This document shows, one piece after another, positions 28,738 through 36,214 of a stretch of DNA of 64,000 nt. Where the stretch lies: the IMG/VR virus record IMGVR_UViG_3300028805_000048, one strand, 5' to 3'. The notes below the pieces were generated by a model that saw only the letters and a list, made by a program, of their open reading frames with translations, did not search any database and was not told where the DNA came from. Every line of letters begins with the position of its first letter. The first letter of the stretch is position 1. Source of the stretch: a virus. Lineage: Duplodnaviria > Caudoviricetes. Made by a program: the position numbers and the translations under genes.

Positions 28738-29094
28738 ATGAGACCAGATCAGATGAAAACAATTCATAGAGTAATTAGCACTTTTGGTGAACGTAACCAA
28801 AAGATGCAAACCTTAGAAGAATTATTAGAATTACAATCAGCTTTATTTGAAAATGTACATCGTGGTACAGATAATCGTGCAAATATTGTTGAAGAAGTAG
28901 CAGATGTTGAAGTGATGTTAATTCAATTGAAACAAATGTTTGATATAACACCAGAAGAGATTCAAGAAGTACAGGATGCTAAATTGACAAGACTTAATCG
29001 TACAATTGAAAAGTATATAGCGAAACAAGCACAAGAAGAACAAACTGCTCAAAAATTAGTTCAAATAGATAGAACAACGTCAAATGGAAAATAA
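28738..29094 (+). CDS. MazG-like nucleotide pyrophosphohydrolase
   Basis: FG..NQ...TLEELLEL...IVEEVADV. Confidence 0.75.
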   Translation: MRPDQMKTIHRVISTFGERNQKMQTLEELLELQSALFENVHRGTDNRANIVEEVADVEVMLIQLKQMFDITPEEIQEVQDAKLTRLNRTIEKYIAKQAQEEQTAQKLVQIDRTTSNGK

Positions 29095-29118
29095 TTTTGT
29101 TTAAATAGGAATTTTTAT

Positions 29119-29337
29119 ATGCTTAATTATTATGTAGACAATGATATTCAATGTGATATTTTAAATAACGAAAACAATTATTTATTTTTTGATATAGCTG
29201 AAAATACTATAGATAGATTAAATAAAAAATGTGAATTTATTCTTTCTAAACAATCACTTAAATGGTTGCCATACAAATTAGAATATAAAGAATCTGTTCA
29301 TATTTATATAAAGACATTTTATTTTAAAAAATTCTAG
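29119..29337 (+). CDS. Hypothetical protein
   Basis: ORF with AGGA RBS. Confidence 0.45.
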   Translation: MLNYYVDNDIQCDILNNENNYLFFDIAENTIDRLNKKCEFILSKQSLKWLPYKLEYKESVHIYIKTFYFKKF

Positions 29338-29361
29338 TTCAATATAATATCTTAATATTAT

Positions 29362-29865
29362 ATGAGGATTAGGATGCGAATATATACTGATGCTAGTACT
29401 AGATCTAAAATTTCTGGTTTAGGATATGTAGCTACAACTAGTAAACATCAAATAATCAAAAAAGATGGTATAGCTATAAATCAAAATGATAATAACACTG
29501 CTGAATTACAAGCTATAATTTATGCAATAGAAGAAACACAGTATAGTTTACAAGATAATGAAAAAATAATAATATTTACAGATTCTACTTATGCAATAAA
29601 TGCTATTAGAAATAATCATTATAGATCTGAAGAAGAACCATTGGTTAAAAAAATTCAAAATATGATAGAGTATAGTGATTATAAGCTTTTTCACGTTAAA
29701 GGTCATTGCCAAGATGGTACTATTTTATCACATTTCAATAAAAAAGCAGATAAAATGTCGAAGTTTGTTAGAAAAGAATATGAAAAAGAATTAGAAGAAA
29801 CTAAAAAACAAAAGAAATTATTAGCTATAGCGAAATCAAAACTGTTAAAAGATAATAATTTATAA
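29362..29865 (+). CDS. rnhA: Ribonuclease HI
   Basis: IYTDAS, NNTAELQAI, IFTDSTY, HVKGH, N.KAD. Confidence 0.88.
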   Translation: MRIRMRIYTDASTRSKISGLGYVATTSKHQIIKKDGIAINQNDNNTAELQAIIYAIEETQYSLQDNEKIIIFTDSTYAINAIRNNHYRSEEEPLVKKIQNMIEYSDYKLFHVKGHCQDGTILSHFNKKADKMSKFVRKEYEKELEETKKQKKLLAIAKSKLLKDNNL

Positions 29866-29938
29866 TTTTAAATAAAAAATGACTTTACAAAATTCATTTA
29901 ATATTTTATTTATATAATCAATTTGAAAGGTTAATTAC

Positions 29939-30169
29939 ATGAATAATTTATATTACATAAAATTAGAAAATGATACGATTGTTAACATGTATATCGCTAA
30001 AAATTTAAATGATGCTATTTTAAAATTTTTACATGATAATATATCTCATATTGGATTATTACAACTATTAGAAAATCATTTAACTTTAGATTTATGGATT
30101 AGAAAAGAGAATGAACAATCTAAAAAGATTAATGTTGATATAGACTATAACGTTAATATTAGGAGTTAA
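29939..30169 (+). CDS. Hypothetical protein
   Basis: TGAAAGG RBS and TTTACA promoter upstream. Confidence 0.55.
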   Translation: MNNLYYIKLENDTIVNMYIAKNLNDAILKFLHDNISHIGLLQLLENHLTLDLWIRKENEQSKKINVDIDYNVNIRS

Positions 30170-30171
30170 TT

Positions 30172-30639
30172 ATGTCTAATTTGAAAGAAAATTTGAAAAT
30201 CATAAAAGAATTAACAAAAATTATAAAAGATAATCCAGATTGGCGTTTTCAACAATTGTTATGGAATTGTGGAATAATTGGTAGAAATTATAATGATCAA
30301 GATAAATTAGAAATAGAAGATAAATTTTATGAAAATTCAGATACTACATTAAAAATAATTAAAAATTTTTTACAAAATAGTGAAGATAGGCGTTTAGAAT
30401 ATTTACATTCGCATTCTTTGATGAATCGTGAAGAATTAGAAAAAGGAATAAAATGTCATTGTTTTTGTTGTTGTACAGAATTTAATTTTTCAGAAATTAA
30501 AGAATGGACTGATAATAATAAGACAGCAATTTGTCCATATTGTAAAGTAGATGCCATTCTTTCAGCAAATTTAAATATAACAAAAAATGAAATAAATAAA
30601 TTAAATAAAAAATATTTTAAGAAATCAACAGTTCTATAG
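30172..30639 (+). CDS. Two-domain hypothetical protein with C-terminal Cys cluster
   Basis: PDWRFQQLL N-terminal domain; CHCFCC...CPYC. Confidence 0.6.
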   Translation: MSNLKENLKIIKELTKIIKDNPDWRFQQLLWNCGIIGRNYNDQDKLEIEDKFYENSDTTLKIIKNFLQNSEDRRLEYLHSHSLMNREELEKGIKCHCFCCCTEFNFSEIKEWTDNNKTAICPYCKVDAILSANLNITKNEINKLNKKYFKKSTVL

Positions 30640-30643
30640 AATT

Positions 30644-30706
30644 ATGATGAAAAACTTTGAAATTACATATTCAGATTCCTATAATCAACCTGAAAGTTTA
30701 GGTTGA
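30644..30706 (+). CDS. Attenuator leader peptide 1 (MMKNFEITYSDSYNQPESLG)
   Basis: 20-codon ORF starting 7 nt after GTTCTA; its residues match the downstream tRNA set; overlaps the 1:2 and 2:3 pairing segments. Confidence 0.78.
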   Translation: MMKNFEITYSDSYNQPESLG

Positions 30707-30736
30707 TAGGTTTTTGTATACAAAGTTTTTAATCAC

Positions 30737-30780
30737 AAAAGCCTGTCAAAAAAAAAATAAAAATGACAGGCTTTTTATTT
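30737..30780 (+). terminator. Attenuator terminator of tRNA operon 1
   Basis: AAAAGCCTGTCA...TGACAGGCTTTTTATTT; the left arm can alternatively pair with 30704-30716. Confidence 0.8.
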
Positions 30781-30868
30781 TAAGGCTTTACAAAAAAGAA
30801 ATTACATGTTAAAAATAATTTTGTTTGTAAAGAGTTATAAAGACATTGTAAATAGGAAACAATATTAT

Positions 30869-30960
30869 GGAGGATTGCTAGAGAGGCTTAATAGAGCGGT
30901 TTTGAAAACCGTCGTGGATGAAATATGCCACCGAGTGTTCGAATCACTCATCCTCCGCCA
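30869..30960 (+). tRNA. tRNA-Ser(TGA)
   Basis: Cloverleaf with long variable arm, loop TT-TGA-AA, GCCA end. Confidence 0.92.
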
Positions 30961-31194
30961 ATAAGCTGCTGAGAGGGTTGTAGTAACTGTAGTTAAGAGA
31001 TTTAGAGCTCCTTAACAAAGCAGATTCCCATAACGGACAATGCTCAGTAGAATCTCTAAATGGATCGTTATAAAAACTACAAATTTTGGGGTGTCATATA
31101 TTGTAAGATACATGTCGGTCAGGCCTAGGGTACAAATAGAGGAAAGCTATATGCTGTGAATGTTTACCGTCACCTACCCCAAACATTTTTAAAA

Positions 31195-31268
31195 GCCGAA
31201 TTAGTATAATGGTATTACGACTGACTTGTAATCAGTTTATGGGAGTTCGATTCTCTCATTCGGCACCA
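31195..31268 (+). tRNA. tRNA-Thr(TGT)
   Basis: Loop CT-TGT-AA, TTCGA, ACCA end. Confidence 0.92.
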
Positions 31269-31273
31269 TTTTT

Positions 31274-31350
31274 TGGAATGTAGCTCAGTTGGTTAGAGCG
31301 CTTGACTGTTAATCAAGATGTCGTGGGTTCGAATCCCACCTTTCCAGCCA
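31274..31350 (+). tRNA. tRNA-Asn(GTT)
   Basis: Loop CT-GTT-AA, GCCA end. Confidence 0.93.
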
Positions 31351-31355
31351 ATCAC

Positions 31356-31433
31356 GGTGTTTTCGTTCAGTTGGTCTAGGACATCGCCCTGTCACGGCGA
31401 AGATCACGGGTTCAAATCCCGTAAACACCGCCA
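31356..31433 (+). tRNA. tRNA-Asp(GTC)
   Basis: Loop CT-GTC-AC, GCCA end. Confidence 0.93.
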
Positions 31434-31539
31434 TTTAAGGTTGAAAAGTTTGGTTTATGGAACCTACTATCTAATAAACTATATACCTTTATTAGCATCA
31501 TGATTGTGTAGTAGGTATGCTAATATAAAACTTTTTCAT

Positions 31540-31614
31540 GCGACCATCGACTAATGGTTAGGTCATCACCCTTTCACGGTGGTAATAGGGGTTCAAATCC
31601 CCTTGGTCGTACCA
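31540..31614 (+). tRNA. tRNA-Glu(TTC)
   Basis: Loop CT-TTC-AC, ACCA end. Confidence 0.92.
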
Positions 31615-31618
31615 ATAT

Positions 31619-31694
31619 CCTCAGGTAGTTAAAGTGGTTATAACGGGGGTCTTATAAACCTCTATTCCTGGTTCGAGTCCAGGCCAGAGGACCA
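31619..31694 (+). tRNA. tRNA-Ile(TAT)
   Basis: Stem GGGGT/ACCTC, loop CT-TAT-AA, ACCA end. Confidence 0.88.
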
Positions 31695-31707
31695 ATTTAT
31701 TTTTAAT

Positions 31708-31784
31708 CGGGAGTTAGCTCAGCCTGGTAGAGCGCTTGCTTTGGGAGCAAGATGCCGTTGGTTCGAATCCAATACTCCCGACCA
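31708..31784 (+). tRNA. tRNA-Pro(TGG)
   Basis: Loop TT-TGG-GA, ACCA end. Confidence 0.93.
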
Positions 31785-31790
31785 ATTTAT

Positions 31791-31876
31791 GCAAGGTTAT
31801 ACCGTAGGAGTAGCGGGACAGACTGTAAATCTGTTGTCTTTGGACTCGGGTAGTGCGACTCTATCACCTTGCACCA
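31791..31876 (+). tRNA. tRNA-Tyr(GTA)
   Basis: Loop CT-GTA-AA, variable arm, ACCA end. Confidence 0.88.
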
Positions 31877-31883
31877 GTTTTAT

Positions 31884-31963
31884 GGGGCGTTAAATCTGGT
31901 TCTAGAACAGATTGCTTAGGATGTAGATCCAAGATAACATGTGAAAATCATGTGGCCCCGCCA
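31884..31963 (+). ncRNA. Aberrant tRNA-like RNA
   Basis: GGGGC/GCCCC acceptor with GCCA end and three arms, but non-canonical D, anticodon and T loops. Confidence 0.55.
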
Positions 31964-32104
31964 AGTTAGGGAGTTTCTTGTAGTTCTTCTCCGTGGATAG
32001 GACAATTAGTGATGAACTAGTTTGTCAAAAAGAGCTGCTTTTGTGGGAACAATACACTGAGATTACATCATACGGTCCATGTTCCCTTCTCTTTTTTTTT
32101 TATT

Positions 32105-32178
32105 TAGGGTGTCTTCTAAGGGTCGGAAAGTGGAATTTGACTCCATTAATCGAGGTTCGAATCCTTGCACCCTAGCCA
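32105..32178 (+). tRNA. tRNA-Gln(TTG)
   Basis: Stem GTGGA/TCCAT, loop AT-TTG-AC, GCCA end. Confidence 0.9.
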
Positions 32179-32377
32179 CAGTTCAAAAATTGTCAGAAAT
32201 GGAGATTTTTTTGCTATTTTACAAGCATGTAAGTTAATTCAAAGATAAATATATTTTGAAGGTTAGTTTTACAATAACTTAGCTATGTGAAAAATTAAAT
32301 TAGTAATAAAATAAGTTGAATTTATGAATTATCTATACTTTAATAATTGGAACTAGATTATTACTAGGAGTAATATA

Positions 32378-33169
32378 ATGACTGTAAACAAATATAAAGA
32401 TATCATTATCAATAAATATACAGAATATGATGAAGATACTCGTTTGGTTAGTGATAGAGGACATAATTTAGAATATTTAACCACTATGCGTTATATTCAA
32501 AAATTCCTAAAACCAGGTGCTAAAATATTAGAAATCGGTGCAGCAACTGGACGTTATTCTATTACTTTGGCTGAGATGGGGTATGATGTTACTGCTGTTG
32601 ACCTTACTCCTAAAAATATTGAAGTAATGAAATCTAAAAGTAAAAGATTAAAGAATTTTAATTGTATGATTGGCGATGCTTTGGATTTGAGCATGTTTGA
32701 TGATAAAACTTTTGATATGGTTTTAAATTTAGGACCTATGTATCATTTATTTAACAAAAAAGATAAAAACAAAGCAGTAAGTGAAACTTTACGTGTTGCT
32801 AAAAGAAAAGCGATATGTATGTTTGCGTATCTTCCTTGTGCTTCATTAATGACTAGTTATGGTTTACGACACCAAGCAGTTTCTCATTTAGACGAGTTAA
32901 TGGATAATGTCGGACGTTTTAAGGATACACCTGAAGAAATATTTAATACTTTTCATATTGAAGATTTTAAGAAGCTATTTAATAAAACAAATACAAAATA
33001 TATTACTAATGTAGCTACTGATGGTATAGCATATGCTATGAAAGAATGGGTAGAACAATTATCTAAAAAAGATTATGATGCTTTTATAAAATGGCATTTT
33101 TTAACTTGTGAGCGTATTGATCAACAAGGATATAGTGCGCATTTGTTATATATTTGTAAGAAAAAGTAG
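32378..33169 (+). CDS. Class I SAM-dependent methyltransferase
   Basis: ILEIGAATGRY, VTAVDL, GDALDL, FDMVLNLGPMYHL. Confidence 0.88.
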   Translation: MTVNKYKDIIINKYTEYDEDTRLVSDRGHNLEYLTTMRYIQKFLKPGAKILEIGAATGRYSITLAEMGYDVTAVDLTPKNIEVMKSKSKRLKNFNCMIGDALDLSMFDDKTFDMVLNLGPMYHLFNKKDKNKAVSETLRVAKRKAICMFAYLPCASLMTSYGLRHQAVSHLDELMDNVGRFKDTPEEIFNTFHIEDFKKLFNKTNTKYITNVATDGIAYAMKEWVEQLSKKDYDAFIKWHFLTCERIDQQGYSAHLLYICKKK

Positions 33170-33343
33170 TTTATTTATCTTGAGAATTATAAGCTCACTT
33201 TAGCTAATTTATGTAAAGAATTGTCCCAGTAATCCTATGACATCTTAGTAATGTTATGATCTGTTCTATGCAATAACATAGAGTTTTAAAAATTCCTAGG
33301 TTCTATTTTTAAAATGGACAAATGATATTTTTAATTATTTTAT

Positions 33344-33447
33344 GGGAAGCGTATATAGCTATGGAGACTATGGCAAGGACTAGTACCCTTGTCCTCGTAA
33401 GTACTAGTTAAAGAGACGGATGGTTCGATTCCACAAACTTCCCACCA
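33344..33447 (+). ncRNA. Aberrant, enlarged tRNA-like RNA (104 nt)
   Basis: GGGAAG/CTTCCC acceptor with ACCA end and GGTTCGATTCC T-arm; ambiguous anticodon region. Confidence 0.6.
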
Positions 33448-33457
33448 TATTTACTAA

Positions 33458-33549
33458 GGAACAGTGGCTGAGTGGTTTAAAGCAGCGATCTACTAAATCG
33501 TCGAGGGCAGAAATGTCTTCCAATCGTTCGAATCGATTCTGTTCCGCCA
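33458..33549 (+). tRNA. tRNA-Ser(ACT)
   Basis: Ser-type body with long variable arm and G73; stem GCGAT/ATCGT, loop CT-ACT-AA. Confidence 0.88.
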
Positions 33550-33645
33550 ATTTTAAAAATGTTGTTTCCTATAAAAAAATGACTTTACAAAATAAAAAAT
33601 TTGTTTTATATATAAAAATATAAAATGAGAAAGGTTCTAATAAAT

Positions 33646-33723
33646 ATGATGAATAGATTAGTTAAAAAATGTTGGCACATGTTTGGATTCGCAGGTAAAA
33701 CTGACGGAGGTGTTAACTATTAA
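33646..33723 (+). CDS. Attenuator leader peptide 2 (MMNRLVKKCWHMFGFAGKTDGGVNY)
   Basis: 25-codon ORF starting 6 nt after GTTCTA (GAAAGG upstream); the run KKCWHMFGFAGK matches all 8 downstream tRNAs. Confidence 0.85.
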   Translation: MMNRLVKKCWHMFGFAGKTDGGVNY

Positions 33724-33752
33724 CTAAAATCTTTTCTAAAGTTAATTTAAAT

Positions 33753-33799
33753 AAAAACCTCCGAAAAAGTAAAAAGTTTCGGAGGTTTTTCTTATTTTT
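33753..33799 (+). terminator. Attenuator terminator of tRNA operon 2
   Basis: AAAAACCTCCGAAA...TTTCGGAGGTTTTTCTTATTTTT; the left arm is complementary to CGGAGGT at 33705-33711 in the leader. Confidence 0.85.
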
Positions 33800-33819
33800 A
33801 TGTATATATTATGAAGATT

Positions 33820-33898
33820 GGGGAATGGGACTGCTTGGGGTGGTCATCTCGTTTGCACCGAGAAATTCAGGTGAGTTCAAAACTCACATTCTCCACCA
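33820..33898 (+). tRNA. tRNA-Ala(TGC)
   Basis: G3:U70 pair, loop TT-TGC-AC, ACCA end. Confidence 0.9.
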
Positions 33899-33900
33899 AT

Positions 33901-33976
33901 GGATATCTGGTATAGCTGGTGCGTACGTCTGTCTGAAGAACAGAAGGACCGAGTTCGATTCTTGGGGTATCCACCA
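33901..33976 (+). tRNA. tRNA-Phe(GAA)
   Basis: Loop CT-GAA-GA, ACCA end. Confidence 0.9.
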
Positions 33977-33980
33977 TTAC

Positions 33981-34056
33981 GGAGCTATAGTATAAATGGT
34001 TATTACTTGCGACTTTTAATCGTAAAATCAAGATTCGAGTTCTTGTGGCTCCACCA
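33981..34056 (+). tRNA. tRNA-Lys(TTT)
   Basis: Loop CT-TTT-AA, ACCA end. Confidence 0.9.
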
Positions 34057-34059
34057 AAT

Positions 34060-34135
34060 GGCAACATATTTCAATCGGTAGAAAGCATCTCTCATAAGGA
34101 TGTAGTTACTTGTTCAAGTCAAGTTGTTGCCACCA
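34060..34135 (+). tRNA. tRNA-Met(CAT), elongator (Ile2 not excluded)
   Basis: Paired G1:C72, loop CT-CAT-AA. Confidence 0.85.
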
Positions 34136-34138
34136 TGT

Positions 34139-34212
34139 GGACCGTTGACAGAGCGTTTATGTGTTCGGCTGCAACCCGAATTAGATGGGTTAGACTCCCT
34201 TACGGTTCTCCA
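34139..34212 (+). tRNA. tRNA-Cys(GCA)
   Basis: Loop CT-GCA-AC, U73 discriminator. Confidence 0.88.
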
Positions 34213-34214
34213 AT

Positions 34215-34289
34215 GCGATTCTCGTATAATGGTTATTATGTTAGTCTTCCAAACTAAAGATATGAGTTCAATTCTCATGAATCGCTCCA
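34215..34289 (+). tRNA. tRNA-Gly(TCC)
   Basis: Loop CT-TCC-AA, U73 discriminator. Confidence 0.9.
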
Positions 34290-34291
34290 AA

Positions 34292-34365
34292 GGAGGTTTA
34301 GTTCAAAGGTAGAACACTGGTCTCCAAAACCAAAAATGATTGTTCGAGTCAGTCAACCTCTGCCA
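34292..34365 (+). tRNA. tRNA-Trp(CCA)
   Basis: Loop CT-CCA-AA, GCCA end. Confidence 0.9.
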
Positions 34366-34415
34366 TTTCAAAATTTTACGCATAGAAGTATATATCAGTG
34401 ACTTGGTTTATACTT

Positions 34416-34492
34416 GTGTGCGTAGCATAAATGGATAATGCACTGGTTTGTGGTACCAGATCATGTGGGATCATACCCCACCGTACACCCCA
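34416..34492 (+). tRNA. tRNA-His(GTG)
   Basis: Stem CTGGT/ACCAG, loop TT-GTG-GT, C73; genomic base at -1 is T rather than G. Confidence 0.85.
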
Positions 34493-34628
34493 ATAAAATT
34501 TTTATTTATGGCTTTACTTTTACAAAACATTATTTTATTTTAAATTTGTTTGTTAAATATATACAAACGTTGTATTAACCGTGGAATTTTTCAGAAACCA
34601 CATTAAATAAACTGAAGAGGATAATGAA

Positions 34629-34850
34629 ATGTCAAAAAGTCAAATGATAGATAGACGTATAAATAAAATAGATGATAATTTTGTATATGTTGAATATACT
34701 TATTTATATGTCGATGAAAAAGAAAATATAGAAAAACAAAAAGGTGATTTTAAAGGTTTTCATCCAATTGGTAAAACTATCCATAAAAATATTAAGATGC
34801 ATGGAAAATATACTGGTTGGGTATGGGGACAAATGTATCAAAAAAATTAG
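34629..34850 (+). CDS. Hypothetical protein
   Basis: GAGGA RBS; TTTACT promoter at about 34514. Confidence 0.6.
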   Translation: MSKSQMIDRRINKIDDNFVYVEYTYLYVDEKENIEKQKGDFKGFHPIGKTIHKNIKMHGKYTGWVWGQMYQKN

Positions 34851-34876
34851 AAATATTTTTAAATAAAATAGTTCTA

Positions 34877-35197
34877 ACATCAATGTCGTTTGAGCCGCGA
34901 CTTTAAAATAATGACGGATGAAAAATTCCAAGCTCAATTGGAGTGCTGTATCCATAGTCAAAAAATTAACAGCTATAGTAGTAAACTACTGGTGTTTGAA
35001 TATTTAACCTATAGAAATAATATTCAGTTCTGCAACTTAAGATTTATCTTATCTATAAAGTTGTTCGGTTTAAGAGTAATCGATTGAATACGTATGGAGT
35101 ATAGTGCACGAAACATACGATACGATAAAGACTTAATCAAACTCTTCGTTATCTATTGACAGATTGTTGTTGACTACGTTAATGTCAACTTTTATTT
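34877..35197 (+). ncRNA. Candidate structured RNA (about 310 nt) leading into tRNA-fMet
   Basis: Nested long-range stems and at least five internal hairpins; GTTCTA motif at 34871. Confidence 0.5.
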
Positions 35198-35199
35198 AT

Positions 35200-35275
35200 A
35201 GCAGGGTAGAGCAGTAGTAGCTTACTTGGCTCATAACCAAGAGGTCGTGGTGTGCAATTCCCACCCCTGCAACCA
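35200..35275 (+). tRNA. tRNA-fMet(CAT), initiator-like
   Basis: Unpaired 1:72, TAGAGCAG D-stem, loop CT-CAT-AA, AACCA end. Confidence 0.85.
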
Positions 35276-35278
35276 ATC

Positions 35279-35579
35279 AAATTTGGTTTTACTCGAATAA
35301 TTAGTTGATGGCTAATAAGAGTACATATATAAATACTGAAAAGTTTTATGTGTGGTTGGATGTAACAAGAAGCATAAAGTTGAATTAGCATAGGTTGGCC
35401 AACCTATAGTGACGTAAGAAATGGACAAATCGTGTTGAACAATACTGACATCTGTATCCATTTGGAGGTAAACAATCCTCTCATCTATTAAACAAAAGAT
35501 TAGCTACCTTTTGTAGATGTGACTGAATAATGTGCTTGTTAATAACTTGGAGGTAGTCAGGAGTCCTTCAACCAAATTT
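35279..35579 (+). ncRNA. Candidate multi-hairpin ncRNA (about 300 nt)
   Basis: Closing stem AAATTTGGTT/AACCAAATTT with many internal hairpins; no plus-strand ORF in the track. Confidence 0.55.
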
Positions 35580-35603
35580 TTAATTAAGTAAAAGGAATAG
35601 AAT

Positions 35604-35777
35604 ATGAAAAAGAAAAAACGAATAAAAACAGGTGAAGAAAGAATAATTCTATTTAATCTTTATCACAATAAAATATATCGACACAAGGTAATAAAAAATA
35701 AAAAAAGAGAACAAAAGAAGTTCAATATAAATAAAGAGATTGGTTATTATTCAAGTTGTTATCTATTAACTGTTTAA
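35604..35777 (+). CDS. ArfA-like alternative ribosome rescue factor, 57 aa (not in ORF track)
   Basis: AAAGGA RBS; LYHNKIYRHKVIKNKK aligns by eye with ArfA LLHDPLFRQRVEKNKK; long hairpin over the 3-prime end; hydrophobic tail. Confidence 0.6.
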   Translation: MKKKKRIKTGEERIILFNLYHNKIYRHKVIKNKKREQKKFNINKEIGYYSSCYLLTV

Positions 35778-35839
35778 ATAATAACCAATTTTCTTTTATT
35801 AAATTTGTTTTTTTTTGATTATTATATGGTGTTAAAATA

Positions 35840-36214
35840 ATGATTTATAAACATTTTCTAGATTTCACAAAAAATTCTCCTTTTGATAAATTATCAGGTG
35901 ATCAAAAAAGAGCTGTAGAAACACAAGCTAACATAGATTTAGAAGCACATAAACTGTCAAGATATTATAAAAAAGCTATAAAAGATGAAGAAATAGAGAA
36001 TGAATTGTTTAAAGCTTTATGCAAACAATATGCAAAAAAATCTGAAAATGAGTTAAAGAAAATGGTAATATTAGATTCAAAAGCTTTATACTATTATCCA
36101 TTAACAAAAGATAGAATTGAATATTACGAAAAATTAGCAAAAGAAAAAGCTGATGCCATGGATAGAAATATATATGCTCAAACAAAATTACATTTTAAAA
36201 ACTTCGATAGATAA
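35840..36214 (+). CDS. Hypothetical protein
   Basis: ORF track. Confidence 0.6.
   Translation: MIYKHFLDFTKNSPFDKLSGDQKRAVETQANIDLEAHKLSRYYKKAIKDEEIENELFKALCKQYAKKSENELKKMVILDSKALYYYPLTKDRIEYYEKLAKEKADAMDRNIYAQTKLHFKNFDR

Follow-up and report, generated by a model that had tools for sequence, protein, structure and literature searches.

The first block of transfer RNA (tRNA) genes in a 64,000-nucleotide (nt) stretch of phage DNA is preceded by a short leader, called leader 1 here, which is likely to attenuate transcription by the ribosome-mediated, trp-type mechanism, sensing decoding capacity through codons of many kinds and regulating the tRNA genes behind it. The stretch analysed, referred to as the window, comprises bases 61805-125804 of the 157-kb IMG/VR virus record IMGVR_UViG_3300028805_000048, and all positions below are those of the window. 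A trp-like attenuator had been proposed at this place in a first-pass annotation made from the letters alone, and our analysis supports the proposal: helices 2:3 and 3:4 of the leader are maintained by compensatory changes, the stop codon of its open reading frame (ORF) stands beside segment 2, its codons track the tRNA genes, and a second leader (leader 2) is built alike. The record has 28% G+C and an estimated completeness of 66%, and its encoded proteins (tail sheath, helicases, homing endonucleases) are those of a contractile-tail phage. No tail sheath protein of a cultured phage exceeds 33% identity to the one encoded here, so a cultured relative is lacking; megablast of the tRNA region against cultured phages returned tRNA-Pro matches only. 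All tRNA genes of the record are confined to positions 30869-35272 of the window.

The elements of leader 1 and the tRNA genes that follow it are:

30631-30638, + strand: GTTCTATA motif, whose end lies 5 nt short of the leader ATG; it overlaps the TAG stop codon of the upstream gene of 155 amino acids (aa)
30644-30706, + strand: leader ORF of 20 codons, encoding MMKNFEITYSDSYNQPESLG; codons 2-16 form the sensing window in the folding model, and the ORF is kept in 8 variants
30645-30693, + strand: segment 1, taken broadly: coding region whose pairing partner, when the leader is not translated, is 30698-30735
30684-30693, + strand: inner arm of segment 1, ATCAACCTGA
30698-30716, + strand: segment 2, consisting of the 3' arm of hairpin 1:2 (TTAGGTTGAT, 30698-30707) and the antiterminator strand TGATAGGTTTTTG (30704-30716)
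30736-30748, + strand: segment 3, CAAAAGCCTGTCA, the 5' arm of the terminator and alternative partner of segment 2
30764-30781, + strand: segment 4, TGACAGGCTTTT (30764-30775), and the T-tract TTTTTATTTT
30869-31876, + strand: tRNA array 1, with genes for tRNA-Ser(TGA), Thr(TGT), Asn(GTT), Asp(GTC), Glu(TTC), Ile(TAT), Pro(TGG) and Tyr(GTA)
32105-32178, + strand: tRNA-Gln(TTG), called by ARAGORN

The ORF, its peptide and the coordinates of segments 1-4 were confirmed by reading the sequence, every coordinate that was checked agreeing with the first-pass annotation, and the three pairings that it had described are real. Each of them is far more stable than in shuffled sequences. Hairpin 1:2 (30684-30693 with 30698-30707) has a free energy of -10.8 kcal/mol, pairing 2:3 (30704-30716 with 30736-30748) consists of 13 base pairs (bp), two of them G:U, with -16.1 kcal/mol, and terminator 3:4 (30737-30748/30764-30775, followed by TTTTTATTTT) has a 12-bp stem with -15.9 kcal/mol, which makes the two competing helices isoenergetic. 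The leader stop codon, TGA at 30704-30706, lies within segment 2. When segment 3 was allowed to choose its best duplex within the upstream 90 nt, the value obtained was -16.4 kcal/mol, compared with -6.0 +/- 1.8 for shuffles, and 0 of 2000 shuffles reached it; in the same test on seven relatives, the observed value was reached by at most 46 of 2000 shuffles. The untranslated leader (30644-30736) folds with -28.3 kcal/mol (z-score -5.5), its coding region pairing with 30698-30735. This long hairpin is predicted to bury segment 2 and would thereby be the wider 1:2 structure that a trp-type model needs.

The behavior of the leader under translation was modeled by masking a ribosome footprint (A site -15 to +12) codon by codon and folding the transcript up to the terminator loop; the calculation assumes equilibrium as well as the footprint, and its outcome speaks for consistency with the mechanism rather than for its proof. 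In the window, the predicted probability (P) that segment 3 pairs upstream was 0.88-1.0 with the A site on codons 2-16, and 0.37 with the A site on the last three codons or at the stop codon, or with no ribosome present. As P falls on the last three codons, the non-cognate tail of the peptide (L, G) would lie outside the sensing window. The drop of upstream pairing near the stop codon was predicted in six of eight leader variants, and low antitermination in the absence of a ribosome in five of eight. The inner 1:2 hairpin carries an A.C mismatch in five variants.

These elements suggest the following course of events. Transcripts that begin at GTTCTATA or further upstream would carry the 20-codon ORF. 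If left untranslated, the ORF would fold on 30698-30735, segment 2 would be hidden, helix 3:4 would form, and transcription would stop at the T-tract, at about 30776-30781. A ribosome that quickly reached the TGA at 30704 would cover segment 2, and 3:4 would form again. A ribosome delayed on any codon between about 2 and 16 (N, E, T, Y, S, D, Q, P and others) would instead cover segment 1 and set segment 2 free to pair with segment 3, so that the terminator would be blocked and RNA polymerase would enter the tRNA array. The new tRNAs would accelerate the decoding of the leader, closing a negative feedback loop. The sensed quantity would be the decoding capacity for the codons preferred by the phage, and its shortage could arise from an ill-fitting host tRNA pool, from host shut-off, or from tRNA cleavage by a defence system. 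Since a test ORF spelled mostly in the amino acids of the nine tRNAs is combined with a switchable stop, read-through would probably occur only on slow decoding.

Leader 1 is a short 5' ORF with codons cognate to the product that it would regulate, as is typical of attenuators. Downstream tRNA genes provide a cognate for 12 of its codons 3-17, ten by standard pairing and two (TCC and CCT) by four-way reading with U34. The composition of the peptide had been put forward as striking, and this held only in part. All nine amino acids of the tRNAs of array 1 and tRNA-Gln (set 1) are represented, which is uncommon: the same is true of 3 of 919 small ORFs and of 1.4% of 20-residue windows in proteins, and when all six frames of the 157 kb are translated, two uninterrupted runs contain all nine, one of them being leader 1. 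The enrichment is less impressive than was implied. Set-1 residues make up 54% of the protein residues of this phage, so that 14 of 19 in leader 1 corresponds to P = 0.066 in a binomial test.

Relatives of the leader were obtained by searching viral contigs with a degenerate leader 2 pattern, which led to three contigs whose records were then searched, and by subsequent scans of viral and metagenome contigs with a leader 1 pattern. The 263-aa methyltransferase-like ORF and the 155-aa upstream ORF, used as protein queries, had no match in viral contigs. Seven further distinct variants of leader 1, eight with that of the window, were found in rumen-type viral and metagenome contigs (labelled G001, G002, G003, G004, L039 and so on, L016 being the same as G002), and were combined in alignment A1. 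The leaders of the relatives are:

Seven relative leaders: MMIMIETYLNSYNQPRIVRLRV; MIKMIVTYSSLDNQPEN; MMIKTIVTYSDLYNQPREQG; MMTYVITYSNLDNQPENLG; MMTYVITYSNLYNQPENLG; MINTIITYLDSYNQPENIG; MMIKSIITYSNLYNQPRE

All eight variants retain the ORF with its start context (GTTCTA, then 6-7 nt, then ATGAT), and each has a stop codon next to segment 2, although the genes upstream differ. The stop codon, which may be TGA, TAA or TAG, is at 0, -6 or +7 to +10 nt relative to the start of segment 2. The single insertion or deletion inside the shared ORF core is of 3 nt, and therefore the sensing codons remain in frame; in G003, a 1-nt insertion near the 3' end of the leader shifts only the tail, and the stop moves to a TAG 10 nt later. 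The peptides, from 17 to 22 residues long, have a conserved core, T-Y-S-x-x-(Y/D)-N-Q-P, and N- and C-terminal parts that vary freely.

By sequence, the terminator stems of the eight variants form three groups, GCCTGTCA (window), CCCGCTAA (G003) and CTCGTC-like (all others), and segment 2 changes in step with them (TGATAGGTTT, GAGGGTTT and TGACGAGTTT, respectively). In alignment A1, the 2:3 helix is paired in 95% of cells, with three pairs changed on both sides, compared with 27-45% in slid controls, and the 3:4 helix is paired in 97.5% of cells, with five compensatory pairs; the sample is small and includes two independent switches of stem type. Conservation of the 2:3 pairing in homologs was one of the points on which the first-pass annotation had staked its reading, and the pairing is indeed kept in the eight variants by compensatory change. 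A tandem terminator, formed by the 1:2 hairpin and GGTTTTTG and flagged as terminator-like by a scan, was considered and rejected: its T-run is absent in the relatives, and it does not explain the 2:3 covariation.

In support of the attenuator, a sister element follows further downstream:

33634-33800, + strand: leader 2 element, comprising GTTCTA, the ORF, the antiterminator strand CGGAGGTGTT and the terminator AAAACCTCCGAAA/TTTCGGAGGTTTT

The ORF of leader 2 (33646-33723) encodes MMNRLVKKCWHMFGFAGKTDGGVNY, has the antiterminator strand at its end, and is followed by its own terminator and by array 2 (33820-34492), with tRNAs for Ala, Phe, Lys, Met, Cys, Gly, Trp and His. No other run in any of the six reading frames of the 157 kb includes seven or more of these eight amino acids, as its segment KKCWHMFGFAGK does. 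The two leaders are unrelated in sequence, and yet the amino-acid roster of each matches its own tRNAs. Leader 2 is conserved in three relatives (G001, G002 and G003), and the order in all four genomes that have it is promoter, leader, terminator, tRNAs. From the two Lys codons to GGAGGT, four of the five differences between the window and G002 are synonymous. The ribosome-mask model predicted the same switch for leader 2, with a sensing window that ends exactly after ...FGFA, the end of the cognate run. Taken by itself, the peptide of leader 1 is not as unusual as it first seems; it is this sister leader that makes the case for leader 1 strong.

Glycine codons and tRNAs of this region deserve a separate remark. 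In G002, a tRNA-Gly(GCC) (L016, 12273-12347) occupies the place of tRNA-Gly(TCC) in the window (34215-34289), and the Gly codons of leader 2 are GGC and GGT in G002 versus GGA and GGT in the window. G003 pairs tRNA-Gly(TCC) with GGC, which indicates that the link between anticodon and codon is not strict.

The conservation of leaders 1 and 2 also bears on whether translation is involved at all. Only the conserved frame and the predominance of synonymous changes in leader 2 hint at translation, and they do so indirectly. One could imagine an RNA switch in which a bound protein, a small RNA or a tRNA chooses between 2:3 and 3:4, the ORF being a by-product of constraints on the sequence, such as those of a TATAAT-like box at 30680-30685. 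Consistent with that, the AATCAACCT core is invariant as a nucleotide sequence, TTGAAA, 17 nt and TATAAT inside the ORF of the window score 11/12 as a promoter, and a Shine-Dalgarno sequence is missing. However, the only core indel is of 3 nt and the 1-nt insertion of G003 is restricted to the 3' tail, the leader 2 changes are mostly synonymous, the rosters match the tRNAs in two unrelated leaders, and the stop codon is always beside segment 2. A search of positions 29000-36000 against Rfam gave no match to T-boxes or other known riboswitches at E-values up to 1, nor does the leader match any other Rfam family, and the internal promoter-like site was rejected as the cause of ORF conservation, as its -35 element is not kept in relatives. 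We thus regard a switch independent of translation as quite unlikely.

The attenuator would also account for the way in which leader codons and tRNA genes vary together. The arrays of relatives are fuller than that of the window, as they include some or all of tRNA-Val(TAC), tRNA-Ile(GAT), tRNA-Leu(TAG), tRNA-Arg(TCT) and tRNA-Leu(TAA); G003 lacks the first three. Among the leaders of relatives, none has a GTA (Val), AGA (Arg) or ATT codon unless the matching tRNA gene is there too, and TTA (Leu) follows the same rule in every contig that reaches the position of tRNA-Leu(TAA), the G004 and L039 contigs ending before it. The window has no Val, Leu or Arg tRNAs in the array, and its sensing codons include no V, L or R; G003 has no tRNA-Val(TAC) and no V in the leader core. 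At the core Ile positions, relatives have ATA, which fits the anticodon TAT, and nearly every core codon has a cognate tRNA gene in the leaders of G001, G002 and G003. The window is best read as having lost its Val, Leu and Arg tRNAs, with the content of the leader following that of the array.

That the ORF encodes a functional micropeptide or serves as a translational-coupling device, its likeness to the tRNA set being due to chance, is in our view very improbable. The T-Y-S-x-x-(Y/D)-N-Q-P core is indeed conserved as a peptide, as would be expected of a micropeptide, but free variation of the termini and of the length fits such a role poorly, and it would leave unexplained the alternative pairings, the second leader with its complementary roster, and the joint loss of V, L and R codons and tRNAs.

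Where transcription starts determines how much of it the attenuator could control. The motif [AG]GTTCTA is found 22-47 nt before the ATG of many structural (late-type) genes, with a Shine-Dalgarno sequence in between, and this distribution makes GTTCTATA a candidate phage-specific promoter of the late type. In 12 of 12 leaders, GTTCTA is located 6-7 nt before ATGAT with no good Shine-Dalgarno sequence, and the leader messenger RNA starting from GTTCTATA is probably leaderless or nearly so. A second family of promoter-like sites, GCTTTACAAA followed after about 17 nt by a TATAAT-like box, precedes many genes; a site of this class is found before leader 2 in the window, G002 and G003, and a TTGACT-type site in G001. 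Another site of this family stands between the terminator of leader 1 and the first tRNA gene:

30787-30816, + strand: sigma70-like promoter candidate, TTTACA (30787-30792), 17-18 nt, TAAAAAT, 3' of the terminator

This site had been raised as a caveat in the first-pass annotation, and the caveat stands: the position of TTTACA was confirmed, and the window and six relatives (7/8) have such a site behind the terminator, whereas that of G001 lies upstream of leader 1. With a promoter in this place, only transcripts that start at or upstream of GTTCTATA would be gated. Host-type transcription initiated at 30787 would evade it, and such bypass is the main limit on attenuator control in the window.

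The same site leads to an alternative, namely that 30736-30781 merely terminates the 155-aa gene, that the array is driven only from 30787, and that the ORF and the 2:3 pairing have no regulatory meaning. The terminator lies about 100 nt after the stop of that gene (30172-30639), seven of the eight variants share a promoter-like site behind the terminator, and the composition of leader 1 alone is weakly unusual, all of which would fit an ordinary operon end with an independent tRNA promoter. On the other hand, the ORF, its start context and its stop position persist in eight variants in spite of different upstream genes, the 2:3 pairing is kept by compensatory change, and leader codons track tRNA genes. 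Moreover, the promoter of G001 is upstream of the leader, and promoter, leader 2, terminator and tRNAs follow one another in four genomes. We consider an ordinary operon end unlikely.

Several observations weigh against attenuation. The promoter candidate at 30787, behind the terminator, would allow the array to be transcribed without passing the switch. With 15 nt, the A-rich terminator loop is long, and G001 and G002 are predicted by the folding model to antiterminate even without a ribosome. The ATG of leader 1, unlike those of other genes of this phage, has no Shine-Dalgarno sequence. The set-1 enrichment of leader 1 alone is not significant. Array 1 provides no cognate tRNA for three sensing codons of the window, AAA (K), TTT (F) and ATT (I), of which AAA and TTT belong to array 2; the ATT codon is a true mismatch, not read by the anticodon TAT, as the first-pass annotation had warned. 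Two more codons, TCC and CCT, depend on the four-way U34 reading. Several relatives carry tRNA-Arg or tRNA-Val with no matching leader codon, which indicates that the roster is incomplete and that the converse of the codon rule fails. Finally, a hairpin with a T10 run divides tRNA-Gln from array 1, so that its co-transcription is uncertain.

Leader-peptide attenuation is well known from enterobacteria, where the ilvGMEDA leader contains Ile, Leu and Val codons, the thr leader Thr and Ile codons, and trpL, hisL, pheL and leuL codons for a single amino acid. Both multivalent and single-amino-acid attenuators of this kind control amino-acid operons (PMC1183508, PMC3082878). Leader 1 shares with them a short ORF with regulatory codons, the alternative pairings 2:3 and 3:4 together with a predicted 1:2, an intrinsic terminator, and a stop codon placed such that a terminating ribosome would block the antiterminator; with the multivalent ones it also has in common that one leader would sense several amino acids. 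In contrast to them, it would regulate tRNA genes and not biosynthetic enzymes, it has one or two codons each for nine or more amino acids instead of runs of one to three kinds, and the shortage that it senses would be relieved by tRNA rather than by an amino acid. It also differs in being phage-borne, in having no Shine-Dalgarno sequence, and in being probably leaderless from a phage promoter motif.

The pheM leader of E. coli pheST controls an aminoacyl-tRNA synthetase by leader-peptide attenuation. It resembles leader 1 in acting on a component of the decoding apparatus and not on biosynthesis, and differs in that its target is a synthetase, it senses one amino acid, and it is chromosomal. 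In Firmicutes, each T-box riboswitch recognises one uncharged tRNA by direct contact with its specifier codon and T-box sequence and works without translation. As leader 1 would, these elements let the state of a specific tRNA decide between terminator and antiterminator; direct binding of a single uncharged tRNA, independence of translation and the lack of a T-box match in 29000-36000 separate the two. The tRNA clusters of large phages (T4, T5-like) resemble that of the window in having tRNA blocks with interspersed small stable RNAs and small ORFs, whereas the T5-like Salmonella phage S124 has its tRNAs in groups of one to three between protein genes, unlike the window. We know of no roster-type leader described for these phages; S124 was not searched for one.

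To our knowledge, the leader-peptide attenuators described so far all regulate genes of amino-acid biosynthesis or of aminoacyl-tRNA synthetases; the genes downstream of leader 1 are tRNA genes. A full-text literature search returned no report of leader-peptide control of tRNA genes. E. coli pheU/pheV, considered as a possible precedent with an attenuated Phe-rich leader, was discarded: in MG1655, promoters abut both genes, and there is no Phe-rich ORF or attenuator. With leader 1, tRNA genes would join amino-acid and synthetase genes as targets of leader-peptide attenuation. It has long been asked why phages have tRNA genes, and little is known about how such genes are controlled. If a leader lists the amino acids of its own tRNA block, the phage would measure decoding capacity directly, the sensed codons could be read from the leader, and the roster would be predicted to change with tRNA gain or loss, as seen here. 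This would bear on the arms race over tRNA-cleaving defence systems and could offer synthetic biology a compact multi-input sensor.

A broader picture, which we hold tentatively and lean slightly against, is that large phages possess a self-tuning homeostat of decoding. Each tRNA block would be gated by a leaderless roster peptide that polls decodability codon by codon, the roster would co-evolve with tRNA gain and loss, and host defences that cut or deplete tRNAs would be answered by a raised output of replacement tRNAs.

Nine tRNA genes had been placed behind leader 1 in the first-pass annotation. Eight of them were called by ARAGORN; the ninth, tRNA-Tyr(GTA) (31791-31876), appeared at a relaxed threshold only, and its Rfam score, 28.5 bits, is just under the cut-off of 29. 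The distal tRNA-Ser(ACT), placed at 33458, was found by ARAGORN at 33458-33549. A hairpin, GGGAACA...TGTTCCC, with the T10 run (about 32046-32100) lies directly before tRNA-Gln(TTG). This gene may form its own unit, yet a CAA codon is present in every variant of leader 1.

A conserved box separates leader 1 from the first tRNA gene:

30834-30859, + strand: conserved box GTTATAAAGACATTGTAAATAGGAAA, immediately 5' of the first tRNA gene; shared by the window, G001, G002, G003 and G004

In G001, the box is directly 3' of the terminator; it could be a processing or promoter element. Array 1 has two non-tRNA spacers, 30961-31194 and 31434-31539. The former, a spacer of 235 nt that separates tRNA-Ser(TGA) from tRNA-Thr, has about 90% identity in G001, G002 and G003, exceeding the leader in conservation. 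Two conserved domains with 8 compensatory pairs make up its fold, no Rfam family matches it, and it looks like a stable RNA of no known family, reminiscent of the small stable RNAs that the T4 tRNA region contains. In G001, an ORF-bearing insert of about 450 nt is located between this spacer and tRNA-Ser.

GTTCTA is also followed, 6-8 nt later, by two mini-ORFs, MSFEPRL (34870-34912, stop at 34904) and MDK (33299-33325, stop at 33323). They are found near a tRNA(CAT) (35200-35272) and tRNA-Ser(ACT), no terminator switch was seen after either, and they may be further leaderless mini-ORFs. In array 2, tRNA-Ala(TGC) (33820-33898) has an unusually long D region and is 83-85% identical to tRNA-Ala of T5-like (S124) and PVP-SE1-like enterobacterial phages in distant blastn matches, the only ones returned for array 2; it looks like a phage-specific lineage common to very different phages. 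Two more tRNA-like elements were not called by the tools. The element at 31884-31965 (GGGGCG...GCCCCGCCA) has a CTTAGGA loop that could hold a Leu(TAG)-like anticodon, and that at 33340-33453 (GGGAAGCG...CTTCCCACCA) has a normal T arm (GGTTCGATTCC) and an insert of about 40 nt; both may be aberrant or intron-bearing tRNAs.

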